Below are positions 5,134 through 63,409 of a DNA stretch of 64,000 bases, piece by piece. The notes under the pieces are model-generated. The model made no database searches, was not told where the DNA came from, and worked only from the letters and a program-made list of their open reading frames with translations. Every line of letters begins with the position of its first letter. Position 1 is the stretch's first letter. Both the position numbers and the translations under genes were made by a program. Source of the DNA: a virus (lineage: Duplodnaviria > Caudoviricetes); the IMG/VR virus record IMGVR_UViG_3300003320_000853; one strand, 5' to 3'.

Positions 5134-5994
5134 CTACATGCCCGCCTTCGGGTTGATCAACCCGAGGAGCGTCATCTCCAGGAGAACTTTGTCGTTGACA
5201 GCCTTGTAGTTGATCCTACGGGTCGCGAGCGGATCAACCGCTTCCTCGAAGGGAGTCTCCACGGGTCGCCCTGAGATGCGGCTCGCCTCTTGGCAGAAGC
5301 GCTGGAAGGCCCGGTCGTGCCAGGGAGGCACCCAGGCTCCGCTGCGGCAGATGAAGATGCGATCGACGGTGCCGGAGACATCGCCCACCATGGGGTCGGG
5401 CCAGACGACGGGCTCAACCCGGGCGGACACGTTGAAGTCTTCCCGGCCGTCGTCGGTCGCCATGTCAGGGAACCGCTTTTCCATGATGTTCCAGTCCCGC
5501 ATCCCCTTCCATGCGGGGAAGACCACGAGGCTCGCGAGCTCGGGGTAGCGGAGCAGGGTCATCATCTGCCAGTTGTCGCACCCGGGATCTTCGTGGGCAA
5601 TCGAGGCTTCGAGCCCGGGGACGCTGTACAAGAGGTCGTGGTGCGCGTCGAAGTGAACAAGCTGGATCGTCTCCGGTCGCGGTCCCGTGCTGGCGTCGAA
5701 GGCGAAGTACGCCCACTTGTGGCTGTCCGCCACCACGAGGCTCCGCACCTGGTCGAAGCGGTAACTGAGGTTCTCCAGGGTCTTCCAGAAGGCTTTCGGC
5801 TTCGGGTTCGACCGGACGAGAGCCATCGACAGACGAAGGTCGACGCTGCCACCGCGAAGCTGGTGCTCCGCCAATCGCGCCGTCCAGGCGAACTCGATCC
5901 CCGTCTTCGTCTCCGAGTGGTTCCAGCCCCACCTGGAATCCTCGAAGACGAAGTAGTCGAAGTCGATGCTCAACCAGATGTGAGACCGACTCAC
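5134..5994 (-). CDS. Arginase/deacetylase-fold (UPF0489-like) metal-dependent hydrolase
   Basis: LSIDFDYF, DSH, HFDAHHD and ICRSxxWxP motifs; GTG start overlaps upstream stop. Confidence 0.6.
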   Translation of the reverse strand: MSRSHIWLSIDFDYFVFEDSRWGWNHSETKTGIEFAWTARLAEHQLRGGSVDLRLSMALVRSNPKPKAFWKTLENLSYRFDQVRSLVVADSHKWAYFAFDASTGPRPETIQLVHFDAHHDLLYSVPGLEASIAHEDPGCDNWQMMTLLRYPELASLVVFPAWKGMRDWNIMEKRFPDMATDDGREDFNVSARVEPVVWPDPMVGDVSGTVDRIFICRSGAWVPPWHDRAFQRFCQEASRISGRPVETPFEEAVDPLATRRINYKAVNDKVLLEMTLLGLINPKAGM

Positions 5995-6260
5995 AGACCC
6001 TCGAATGGGTCGTCCCCCAGAAGGGCCTGCGCGACGGGGTTGGGTTTCGGAGGGACGTAGATGTCTACGATTGCGTTGTATCCGAAGGGCTCCTTGACGA
6101 GGAGCCCCGCCTTGCACAGTGCCTTGAAGGCTTCGGCCGGCAACCGGATCGACCCGTTCCCCAACCTGATGAGGGCACGTCCATCCTGGTGGACGTAAAC
6201 GACCTGGATTGGATCCGCCTTCCGGAAGAATTCCTCGAATGAGCCGTCGTCCTTGCTCAC
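5991..6260 (-). CDS. Hypothetical protein with C-terminal tag variant (PVAQALLGDDPFEGL)
   Basis: ORF in operon-like array; shared tail motif. Confidence 0.75.
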   Translation of the reverse strand: MSKDDGSFEEFFRKADPIQVVYVHQDGRALIRLGNGSIRLPAEAFKALCKAGLLVKEPFGYNAIVDIYVPPKPNPVAQALLGDDPFEGL

Positions 6261-6264
6261 GACC

Positions 6265-7002
6265 CTACCTCCGGGCCGAATAGCCGATGGTGGCCACGGT
6301 GAACACGATGACGTCGTAGGCGAAGTGCACGGTGATCGCCGCCCACAGGCCGTGGGTGAACATCAGCCAGAAGAAGAACATCCCGGCGAACCAGGAATTG
6401 ATGATCCCGAAGAGCCCCTGGTACTTGTGGCCGTCCCGGAAGAATGAATTGGCCGAGATCACGGCGGCTCCCACGGCCCACCCGCCCGGGTGGAAGAGGA
6501 TGCCGTGCATCCTCTGGAGGGTCGTCCAGTCGGCGAACGCACAGAGAACGTTGACGTAGATCCAGCGGATGATGTTGATGTCTGCGAAGCCGAGGAAGAC
6601 CCAGTTCGATACCTTCACGCCGACGATTGCACCGAGGAAGATGAGCCAGCGGAAGCAGACCTCCTCCATGAAGCCGGCCCACGCGGCGAGGAACATCCGG
6701 CCGACCCACAGGGCCCCGGGGTTCGGAGCATCGAAGCGAAACGCCCGCCCGAGGACGCGTTCGAAGGGATTCCGCTTCGCCGACTGGACGAACTCCAGGA
6801 ACGTCTGGACGACGAAGCCCCAGATGAAGAGCGGGACGCCGAGGGCCAGCCATTCGGTGACGTCGCCCTTGCTCGTCCAGAGGTAGAAGGTTGGGATCGG
6901 GATGACGCCAGGCCACAGCCCGTTGACGATCCAGATGACGATCGCAGAGAGGATGGCGCTCGCGATGTAGCTCCGCTTGTTGTCTTTCAGGCTCGCGTTC
7001 AC
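6265..7002 (-). CDS. CPBP/CAAX-family intramembrane metalloprotease
   Basis: Multiple TM segments; EEVCFR, FFRDGH and AAITVHFAYD motifs. Confidence 0.85.
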   Translation of the reverse strand: MNASLKDNKRSYIASAILSAIVIWIVNGLWPGVIPIPTFYLWTSKGDVTEWLALGVPLFIWGFVVQTFLEFVQSAKRNPFERVLGRAFRFDAPNPGALWVGRMFLAAWAGFMEEVCFRWLIFLGAIVGVKVSNWVFLGFADINIIRWIYVNVLCAFADWTTLQRMHGILFHPGGWAVGAAVISANSFFRDGHKYQGLFGIINSWFAGMFFFWLMFTHGLWAAITVHFAYDVIVFTVATIGYSARR

Positions 7003-7003
7003 A

Positions 7004-7028
7004 GGTGACCCTTACACCAAGGGTCACC
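7004..7028. promoter_or_regulatory. 10-bp perfect inverted repeat with the GGTGT(A) element as loop
   Basis: GGTGACCCTT-ACACC-AAGGGTCACC just upstream of the minus-strand CPBP gene. Confidence 0.55.
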
Positions 7029-7323
7029 CCAGATCGTCGTTGAGGAGCACTTCCCACGCCGTAGGACGGTGCTTGGGTACGAATGCTCCTGGCGGGTAAT
7101 ATTTCACGAGACCGCTGCAACGGGTGCAATAGTTGATCGTCCCGCCCTTCTTGAAGCGTCCCGAGTCTTCCGGGATCATGTGGGTCTTGCGATCCCTCGG
7201 GTGATGCGGACACCCCTTCTGGGAAGCTTCAAAGAGATCCCGGAGCAACGCCTTCTCTTTCTCGTCACCCTTCCGGATGGACCGGACGAATTTGCGGAGC
7301 AGGGTGTTATTCTCGTATCCCAT
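7024..7323 (-). CDS. Zn-binding hypothetical protein with C-terminal tag (RPTAWEVLLNDDLG)
   Basis: CPHH...CTRC; ATG overlaps rnhB stop. Confidence 0.75.
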   Translation of the reverse strand: MGYENNTLLRKFVRSIRKGDEKEKALLRDLFEASQKGCPHHPRDRKTHMIPEDSGRFKKGGTINYCTRCSGLVKYYPPGAFVPKHRPTAWEVLLNDDLG

Positions 7324-61808: not shown

Positions 61809-62443
61809 TCACGAAGCAAGACGAAATCGACGCGAAGAAATACCTCCGGGAGACGCCCGAGGAAGATCAAGCCTTCGGGTGGGTCTCCGACGGGAAGCTC
61901 ATGCGCGGCGGGGCCTTTCGGTTCATGCCCCTTCTCGCTTGGATCGTCGATCCTCCGAAGGTCGAATCCGCAGAATCGAGGATCGCGGATCCTGAGCTGG
62001 CGAAGATCGATGCTGTCGTGAACCCTCACCAGACACGGATCATCACGCGGAAGCTCGCCGTCTCAGGTGCTCTTCTCAAGATGGCCGAGGATGTCTCGGT
62101 GGGGATGCTCGATTGGGCGCTCCCGATCACGGAGAACATGGTGCCGAGGATCGCCGACGTTCTCGCGACCTTCGGGTGGGATCAGCGCGTGTGGCCGGAT
62201 GACGCGGGCTGGCCGGACGAGACGCCCGACAGGGAAGGCTTCATCGGCCTCATGATGAAGCGGCGGCTGAACGCGACGTTGACCTTTCCTCCGGGGCCGA
62301 ACGGCAACCGGGTGATGACGGTCAACGTGCTCAAGGTCTCGTCGCCGTTCCCGCTGCCCCCCGTTCTCGTCGAGGAGGACCGCGTGATCGCCTCGCCCGA
62401 GCTGGTCGAGAAGTTTCGATCCCTGACGGCAGGTCTCTTCTAG
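61805..62443 (+). CDS. Hypothetical protein
   Basis: ATGA overlap. Confidence 0.7.
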   Translation: MITKQDEIDAKKYLRETPEEDQAFGWVSDGKLMRGGAFRFMPLLAWIVDPPKVESAESRIADPELAKIDAVVNPHQTRIITRKLAVSGALLKMAEDVSVGMLDWALPITENMVPRIADVLATFGWDQRVWPDDAGWPDETPDREGFIGLMMKRRLNATLTFPPGPNGNRVMTVNVLKVSSPFPLPPVLVEEDRVIASPELVEKFRSLTAGLF

Positions 62444-62445
62444 GC

Positions 62446-63093
62446 CTACTCGTCGTCGGCCAGGAGATGCTCCCAGGCGTTCTGGGGCTTGCCCACCACG
62501 GCCTTCGTGAGCCGTAGAAGCGGGAAGTCCTCCTTGAGGCGCGGGCCCGTGTCGAGATCCCGCACCCCCACCGAGCAGAGATCCACCATTGTATCGTTCG
62601 AGATGTCCCGGACCGTCACCAGCCAGAGTTCTTTGCGCCTCTGGATGAAGATCGCGGCCCTCCAGAGGAAGAGCTGGCCGGTGACCGCATCTTTGGCCCC
62701 CGTCGCAACCTCGAAGGGTTCGGCGCTGAGATCGACTTTGGGTCTCTCCCACCGGAAGTGCGTCGTCGAATGGTATACCCCGCCCACATCGGTGATGGGC
62801 GTAGAATCCCACCGGATCTGGCCGGCGTTCGCGGCCTCGTAGGCCCGCAAGGCATCGTAGACGTCGATCCTGGTCTCGTGGCACGTGACGTCGCCCCGCT
62901 TGAGAGAAGCTCCCGGGCTGAGGAACTGCGTCCTCTCCTTGGGCGGGTCGAGCATGCTCCGGCGACCGCCCTGATCCCGCTTGACAGAAATCCGGCCGGT
63001 TGCGTCTCCGACTTCGAAGGTCCGCACCACGATGGACTGCGGGCACTGTTCGTGGAGAATGAGCACTGGACGTCGGCTCAGATCGAGGATCAT
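62446..63093 (-). CDS. Hypothetical protein with C-terminal tag (KPQNAWEHLLADDE)
   Basis: ATG 8 nt after GGTGTAT. Confidence 0.75.
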   Translation of the reverse strand: MILDLSRRPVLILHEQCPQSIVVRTFEVGDATGRISVKRDQGGRRSMLDPPKERTQFLSPGASLKRGDVTCHETRIDVYDALRAYEAANAGQIRWDSTPITDVGGVYHSTTHFRWERPKVDLSAEPFEVATGAKDAVTGQLFLWRAAIFIQRRKELWLVTVRDISNDTMVDLCSVGVRDLDTGPRLKEDFPLLRLTKAVVGKPQNAWEHLLADDE

Positions 63094-63101
63094 GGGGAAG
63101 A

Positions 63102-63120
63102 ATACACCGGAGCGGTGTAT
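63102..63120. promoter_or_regulatory. Back-to-back GGTGTA elements
   Basis: ATACACC-GGAGC-GGTGTAT, 8 and 10 nt from divergent ATGs. Confidence 0.7.
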
Positions 63121-63130
63121 CTGGGGGTTG

Positions 63131-63409
63131 ATGTGGTGGAAGGTCGAGCACGAGTTCGTGATCTCTCGGGTCGCGATCCGCACCAATTTCGTCGTCGAGC
63201 AGACCAACGGCGAGTGGATCTTCTGGCGCCCCTTCAAGAACGGCAGGAAGCCTGAGAAACGGTTCCGCGTGATCGGCGACAACAGTACGATCCGGGCCGC
63301 GATCGTCGGCGATTGGTTGGTCCGTATGGAGGAGCCGGCATGGGCGAAGACCCTCTACCGGCCCACGGCGTGGGAACATCTCGAAGGAGATCCGTTCGAG
63401 GCGGTGTAG
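63131..63409 (+). CDS. Hypothetical protein with C-terminal tag (RPTAWEHLEGDPFEAV)
   Basis: ATG 10 nt after GGTGTAT. Confidence 0.75.
   Translation: MWWKVEHEFVISRVAIRTNFVVEQTNGEWIFWRPFKNGRKPEKRFRVIGDNSTIRAAIVGDWLVRMEEPAWAKTLYRPTAWEHLEGDPFEAV

Follow-up and report, generated by a model that had tools for sequence, protein, structure and literature searches.

We analysed a window of 64,000 nucleotides (the whole stretch of DNA under study) from the IMG/VR virus record IMGVR_UViG_3300003320_000853 (Duplodnaviria; Caudoviricetes). About one-sixth of its proteins, otherwise unrelated and fast-evolving, share one short C-terminal helical peptide, referred to here as the tag. The source is a huge uncultured phage; a contig recorded as carrying the window's own RNase HII measures 376,986 bases. 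Genes are tightly packed on both strands at a base composition of 62-65% G+C; the recognisable ones encode a nicotinamide phosphoribosyltransferase, an adenylosuccinate-synthetase-like protein, a deoxynucleoside monophosphate (dNMP)-kinase-like protein, RNase HII and a peptidoglycan transglycosylase. At the DNA level the window had no match to any cultured phage.

A tag profile of 12 columns was applied to the six-frame open reading frames (ORFs) of the window. It matched 16 ORFs at 11.4-20.6 bits, the next best ORF reaching 8.3 bits, and in 13 of the 16 the tag was located at most 7 residues from the stop. A second profile, built from the tags of two related phages only, gave 12 window matches of at least 8 bits, all 12 within 12 residues of the stop, while 30 residue-shuffles of the same ORFs produced a mean of 0.1 matches and none at a C-terminus. 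The claim of a first-pass annotation, made from the letters alone, that unrelated proteins here end in one motif is thereby borne out; the 14 C-terminal instances it had listed all translate as it gave them, and its two internal copies were found as well, at 86 and 57 residues from the stop. In the reverse direction, a window-only profile was run on rel2, a 275-kb IMG/VR contig whose 181-243 kb are syntenic with the window at 65-80% nucleotide identity. All 17 matches of at least 8 bits were C-terminal; uniform placement would give 13%. The strict core of the motif occurred 14 times at C-termini and twice internally in rel2, and 23 times at C-termini and never internally in the more distant genome G010. 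A degenerate DNA pattern for the motif retrieved seven metagenome contigs, every one of them a relative with a C-terminal motif, most with more tags nearby. The shared tag is real and far beyond chance. A full-text literature search turned up no published description of it.

Per column, the 13 C-terminal tags share 66% identity in their DNA, and third codon positions vary freely (ACG/ACC/ACT, GCG/GCC/GCA, CTC/CTG/CTT/TTG). Conservation is therefore at the protein level, as had been proposed, and not that of a nucleotide repeat; the carrier genes also sit on both strands. Stop-codon usage of tagged genes equals that of other genes, so that a link to readthrough is not indicated. The carriers and the related tails are as follows:

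7024-7323, minus strand: tagged small Cys-rich protein; tag codons 7027-7068, 20.6 bits, 2 residues ahead of the stop
14799-14969, plus strand: tagged 56-residue, four-Cys, zinc-ribbon-like protein
28344-28553, plus strand: tagged 69-residue acidic protein, T-W-H variant; tag kept in the rel2 ortholog
44972-45475, plus strand: tagged 167-residue protein; tag kept in the rel2 ortholog (37% identical)
45445-46602, plus strand: zinc-finger protein (DUF3268, topoisomerase I (Topo-I)-type zinc ribbon) whose tag, at 46303-46344, is internal and lies 86 residues ahead of the stop
46599-46898, plus strand: tagged zinc-ribbon protein, T-W-H variant, P-F ending
48250-48801, minus strand: protein predicted to have a single hydrophobic helix; tag at 48301-48342, 17-18 residues ahead of the stop
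50972-51976, plus strand: tagged 334-residue protein with Tyr replacing Trp; Phe version in the rel2 ortholog
52691-53209, plus strand: tagged 172-residue protein, modelled as a folded body, a disordered linker and a tag helix at 164-168
54343-54552, minus strand: tagged 69-residue protein; 4-base overlap with the next tagged gene
54549-55082, minus strand: tagged 177-residue protein, T-W-H variant, P-F-G ending
55103-55483, minus strand: tagged protein; hydrophobic helix at the N-terminus, coiled-coil-like body
60267-61058, minus strand: protein carrying the Tyr version of the tag internally at 60435-60476, 57 residues ahead of the stop, followed by a Pro-rich stretch and a basic tail
61077-61598, plus strand: tagged 173-residue protein; tag kept in the rel2 ortholog (30% identical)
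62446-63093, minus strand: tagged 215-residue protein; tag kept in the rel2 ortholog (36% identical)
63131-63409, plus strand: tagged 92-residue protein, P-F ending
7323-8069, minus strand: RNase HII with a degenerate tag-like tail behind the catalytic domain (Pfam match 44-225 of 248)
18423-18902, plus strand: Trp-less acidic tail A-K-A-L-L-G-D-D-D-P-F, partly kept in the rel2 ortholog; outside the tag count
5991-6260, minus strand: Trp-less acidic tail A-Q-A-L-L-G-D-D-P-F, 2.6 bits; outside the tag count

The minus-strand pair 54343-54552 and 54549-55082 has coupled stop and start, and three further carriers lie within 1.5 kb of it. Four Trp-less tails, which had been put forward as variants of the same tag, are present in the sequence. 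As copies of the tag they did not hold up: one had the low profile score given above, the other three were unranked, and the Trp-less pattern was not enriched at C-termini, so they were dropped. The A-[KQ]-A-L-L-G-D-D-(D)-P-F endings at 18423-18902 and 5991-6260 may be a second, rarer label.

Within the window the tag follows the consensus x-P-T-A-W-E-x-L-L-x-D-D. A frequent shorter form has a single Leu with the acidic run directly after it, and in the T-W-H form the Trp is shifted one place earlier; the core common to all lineages is [ST]-x-aromatic-[DE]-x-[LI]. P-T-x-x-E is a classical helix N-cap (capping box), and a helix starting at the Thr would put the Trp and the Leu pair on one face. 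An AlphaFold2 model of 52691-53209, based on six orthologs, showed a folded body with a predicted local distance difference test (pLDDT) score of 70-88 and disorder at residues 138-172 (below 50), where the only structure was a helix at 164-168 covering W-A-A-L-L. In the ortholog alignment of this protein the body is 44-59% identical, the linker contains insertions and deletions, and the tag stands out as a conserved island. The model thus supports a capped amphipathic helix behind a disordered linker. This was one half of the earlier description; the other half, an acidic tail with P-F as defining elements, did not stand, as the comparison of lineages below indicates.

The tag has neither a Gln anchor nor an L-F or aromatic pair, and its endings vary between L, F, V, E, G and S. 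Three window copies are not terminal and lie 17, 57 and 86 residues ahead of the stop. The protein at 45445-46602 runs 86 residues beyond its tag, while its rel2 ortholog (220536-221159) stops 3 residues after it, which argues that the window protein gained a C-terminal extension and that the tag needs no free end. A fused gene, an extended one or the loss of a stop would account for the difference between the two genes. A likeness to the tail of the single-stranded DNA-binding protein (SSB), which ends in D-D-D-I-P-F with a free carboxylate, had also been suggested; it fails because residues follow P-F wherever P-F is present and because many tags have no P-F at all.

Relatives of the window form a clade of huge phages. 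Besides rel2, a 372-kb contig (rel1) is more distantly related to the window, and a portal-like protein common to both led to 60 loci in IMG/VR, whose contigs reach 529 kb and in several cases have terminal repeats. For the tag survey five clade genomes were taken in full or nearly so; among the relatives, G012 (437 kb) and G010 (398 kb, 48% G+C) are complete. The HK97-type major capsid protein is homologous to gp27 of phage G (PDB 6WKK, E = 1.5e-62). The clade core also includes RecA, an NAD-dependent ligase, a sigma-like protein, a family A polymerase, a DnaB-like helicase and a primase-like zinc ribbon. Judged by the capsid protein, Tunturiibacter phage Tunturi_5 is the closest cultured relative, with 47.7% identity, and its host is an acidobacterium from tundra soil (PMC11924767); as a pointer to the host of the clade this is only a hint.

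The tag was present in all five clade genomes surveyed, each lineage having its own version. There are about 25 terminal copies in rel2 and about 10 in rel1, where an R follows the acidic residue and the acidic tails are extended. G012 has about 35-40 copies of the form P-T-[ACV]-W-[ED]-R-[LI]-L, often without the acidic run, and the version of G010 is [KT]-T-L-W-[ED]-H-L. The tags of G012 and rel1 agree with an S/T-x-W-[EDN]-R-L form. G022 gave zero matches by profile, yet S-R-F-D-[LM]-[IM] ends at least nine of its proteins, in the same frame and with every variable position changed. G012 and G022 have a weak acidic run or none; by this comparison, the P-F ending and the acidic run are traits of the window's lineage and not of the tag as a whole.

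The bodies of the carriers are mutually unrelated, and most of them are without a Pfam or PHROG match. Recognisable bodies comprise zinc ribbons (DUF3268, Topo-I type), a radical SAM enzyme, a MarR-like protein and a DivIC-like coiled coil, and a single hydrophobic helix is present in each of two window carriers. Of 22 carrier bodies in rel2, just 1 had a homolog in three other clade genomes, compared to 152 of 321 genes overall (p = 3e-5), and the carrier genes are located in the variable genome arms, far from the head module. This depletion from the conserved gene set, together with the location, indicates that the tag marks the fast-evolving accessory proteome. The tag itself is retained on orthologs that are only 30-55% identical.

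RNase HII is the sole carrier with a clear function. The partial copy noted at its end in the first-pass annotation is real: a weak tag version forms the tail of RNase HII in the window, and a like tail is kept in rel2 and rel1. The tail of the G010 enzyme differs from G010's own tag. Among 120 RNase HII homologs the post-catalytic tail was, depending on the lineage, of the Q-x-x-L-F clamp type, acidic-hydrophobic or the tag. The tail classes seen were L-L-D-L-L-x-E-L-P-Q-E-like, F-D-F-S-T-L-G-G-D-D-E-like, E-A-W-x-x-L followed by acidic residues, and the Q-x-x-L-F clamp type. Since lineages differ in their docking-type endings, the RNase HII tail would be a general docking site, and this keeps a replication hub in play as the partner of the tag.

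A version that changes in step on unrelated carriers within each genome is what a single co-evolving reader predicts. The tag is probably an address label for one common partner, a reader whose existence we infer from this behaviour. The earlier suggestion of one common partner stands in this respect, given its retention on diverged orthologs, its presence in five clade genomes and the in-step changes; the particular partners that had been proposed do not follow from these results. A carrier would then consist of a folded, fast-evolving body, a disordered linker of variable length and a helix of one to two turns. The helix would open with the capping box ([ST]-x-aromatic-[DE]) and place its aromatic residue on the same face as one or two Leu/Ile, with the acidic run after it in the window's lineage. 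A single conserved reader would bind this helix and handle 10-20% of the phage proteins as one class, and each lineage would have changed the label on all its carriers together.

A candidate for the reader is the phage's own ClpX unfoldase, working with host ClpP. Of 21 large clade contigs, 19 encode a ClpX homolog, and so do all nine complete ones. This homolog has a zinc-finger N-domain (CxxC...CxxC), a Walker A motif, a GYVG pore loop and an L/M-G-F loop, and the RKH region is replaced. In ClpX, the zinc-binding N-domain is the adaptor-docking domain, the L/M-G-F-type loop docks ClpP, and the RKH loop helps to read the ssrA tag. No ClpP family match was found in the two relatives searched, both of them incomplete contigs. 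In the complete genomes G008 and G017 the ClpX match is split inside ORFs of 777-795 residues, with the break between residues ~120 and 117-119, as if an intein or other insertion interrupted clpX.

The label would tether the carriers to phage ClpX, either as substrates that are cleared on schedule or as SspB-like adaptors that bring host targets for destruction. A body, a flexible linker and a short terminal peptide are the layout of the adaptor SspB. The model and alignment of 52691-53209 show the same arrangement, a folded body with a long flexible linker and a short terminal docking peptide, and the clade encodes a ClpX with the zinc-binding domain. Phage ClpX is our preferred but tentative candidate for the reader, less likely than not, with the carriers as substrates or SspB-like adaptors.

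Several results weigh against a ClpX reader. The tag is unlike any known ClpX degron and unlike the SspB tail, which is basic and binds as a strand, while the phage tag would be a capped acidic helix of unrelated sequence; SspB is also one adaptor, compared to dozens of carriers in the phage. An ssrA-like ClpX C-degron needs the extreme C-terminus with a free carboxylate and a non-polar, L-A-A-like ending; the phage endings vary, and the three window copies 17-86 residues from the end show that a free C-terminus is not needed, which argues against a C-degron read by the pore. RNase HII and the radical SAM enzyme, which are probably needed throughout infection, are tagged as well. ClpX is one of about 66 clade-core genes with the same presence pattern, and the net charge of its zinc domain follows the charge of the tag only loosely across five lineages. 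In four genomes no tagged gene stood consistently beside the genes for ClpX, AAA, volactin-type actin, DnaB or polymerase; a tagged ORF directly behind the actin gene was found in rel2 only.

Other approaches to the reader were set aside. The charge comparison was not used as evidence, as it covers five lineages and the match is loose. Tunturi_5 has neither the tag nor ClpX, but this pattern adds little weight to ClpX because 65 other clade-core genes are missing there too (66 of 90 absent); phylogenetic profiling with this phage was rejected because it is too distant. A complex prediction for two copies of the phage ClpX N-domain with zinc and the last 36 residues of a tagged rel2 protein gave 0.01 against a mark of 0.32 in a run without controls, and weighs neither for nor against binding. 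A clade-core classical AAA protein of 508 residues, present in 19 of 19 genomes, was rejected as reader, since its modelled 255-residue N-terminal half is a degenerate second AAA fold and not a peptide-binding domain of the MIT or Cdc48-N type.

Instead of ClpX, the tag could recruit its carriers to the phage's replication or DNA-handling machinery, or to another phage core protein, as an analogue of clamp-binding or T7 gp2.5/gp4 tails. Such an arrangement is known from the bacterial Q-L-[SD]-L-F motif, the archaeal and eukaryotic PCNA-interacting protein (PIP) box and the C-termini of T4 gp43, gp55 and gp33 on the gp45 clamp, where unrelated proteins meet on one hub via a short terminal peptide. 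RNase HII points in this direction: at the exact site of the tag-like tail of the phage enzymes, homologs of some lineages have clamp-type endings, and those of huge-phage lineages have the tag or acidic-hydrophobic endings. Moreover, rel2 has two small tagged ORFs between its DnaB-like helicase and primase-like genes, and several carriers are Topo-I/DUF3268-type zinc ribbons or MarR-like. The tag misses the clamp consensus, however, including that of the PIP box (Q-x-x-[LIM]-x-x-[FY]-[FY]), and no beta-clamp or gp45-type clamp (PF00712, PF02768, PF09116) was found in five relatives, two of them complete. The T7 tails, which are acidic and dock on T7 DNA polymerase, resemble the tag in the acidic run and the near-end aromatic or hydrophobic residue of the window's lineage, and the clade replisome is of the T7 kind, with a family A polymerase and a DnaB-like helicase. 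But the phage tag conserves the capped helix and not the acidic run, and it has dozens of carriers where T7 has two. The family A polymerase, the helicase and the primase are themselves untagged, the carriers are mostly orphan ORFs of the variable arms and not DNA-handling enzymes, and the RNase HII tail of G010 is not that genome's own tag. Recruitment to a replication hub is accordingly rather unlikely.

The tag could also load cargo into the capsid by docking effectors inside the procapsid on the major capsid protein, scaffold or portal, so that they are packed and injected with the DNA. The carriers are small, lineage-specific and effector-like and would gain from acting before gene expression. 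The capsid protein (rel2 L024:5652-6530 and orthologs) is about 92% identical among four clade genomes, compared to 48% for the median core protein and 69% for the next best, which suggests an unusual constraint. A C-terminal helix behind a linker resembles the cargo peptides of encapsulins and bacterial microcompartments (BMCs), which are short amphipathic terminal helices on poorly conserved linkers of unrelated proteins, read by one shell in the known systems. Nevertheless, no BMC shell family (PF00936) exceeded the cut-off in five relatives, two of them complete. The encapsulin consensus is of the G-S-L type, compared to [ST]-x-aromatic-[DE]-x-[LI], and the phage carriers number dozens, are mostly orphans and do not lie beside the capsid gene but in the variable arms, distant from the head module. 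In T4, a large myovirus, the capsid-targeting sequence is likewise a portable peptide and directs unrelated proteins to a single destination, but it is N-terminal and cut by the prohead protease, while the phage tag is C-terminal and has no cleavage-site pattern. RNase HII, the radical SAM enzyme, regulator-like carriers and those with a hydrophobic helix make little sense as packed cargo, and a near-invariant capsid protein fits badly with a switch of the label from T-A-W-E-H-L to S-R-F-D-L-I. Capsid loading thus appears unlikely.

Less probable again is mimicry of a host hub, in which the tag would bind a single conserved protein of the host, such as its ClpX, a chaperone, or a division or transcription protein, and the effectors would concentrate on this hub or compete for it. 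Phages that span 48-63% G+C, and whose core proteins are 48% identical at the median, keep the core motif, as would suit a slowly evolving target, and the carriers resemble host-interaction genes; the lineage-wide switches (A to L before Trp, Trp to Phe, loss of the acidic run), on the other hand, are easier to reconcile with a reader borne by the phage. Finally, that there is no label, and that the tag is a C-terminal DNA cassette spread by recombination or a generic helix cap without a common partner, is very improbable: tagged genes do cluster in mosaic regions with many strand switches, but synonymous positions differ freely without a nucleotide repeat, and diverged orthologs differ in the linker yet retain the motif, which is strictly terminal in unrelated genomes and alters in step within each of them.

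Taking up phage ClpX again, the full proposal would be a clade-wide proteome-addressing system in huge soil phages, in which a tag on 10-20% of the proteome, recoded in step, plugs effector-like orphan proteins into phage ClpX as interchangeable adaptors feeding host ClpP, or clears them on schedule as a class. As a whole this proposal is rather doubtful. Known systems in which proteins share a terminal docking peptide, such as clamp clients, T7 acidic tails, the cargo of encapsulins and microcompartments, and degrons, each involve a handful of proteins. The present label is found on dozens of unrelated, mostly orphan proteins per genome and is rewritten by lineage, in a clade of at least 60 huge-phage contigs. 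With the tag as a simple sequence handle, a large part of the 'dark' proteome of huge phages can be placed in a single functional class, and engineering gains a natural portable tag. Its reading as a label predicts a single reader, which could be fished with a 12-residue peptide. If this reader were the phage ClpX, the carriers would represent the first phage-encoded targeted-proteolysis network; if it were the capsid, the tag would define the set of injected effectors.

Some further features were observed in the window and its relatives. In the window, the genes for the adenylosuccinate-synthetase-like protein (34121-35728; partial Pfam match, 2-242 of 416), the dNMP-kinase-like protein (26525-27811) and the nicotinamide phosphoribosyltransferase (31423-32802) lie near one another, and a PurZ-like role of this group in base modification is possible. 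A scan of 44-64 kb for sigma-70-type promoters found none. At 16894-18012 the window encodes a 372-residue protein with a weak match to a von Willebrand A domain (E = 5.8e-6, under the Pfam cut-off). A clade-core gene encodes a volactin-type actin (Pfam PF25216, E = 8.5e-76; rel2 L025:3784-4818 and orthologs) that is 62-71% identical between genomes. The core protein at rel2 L023:9680-13069 is 1130 residues long and contains an intein with a LAGLIDADG domain, while its rel1 ortholog has 668 residues.

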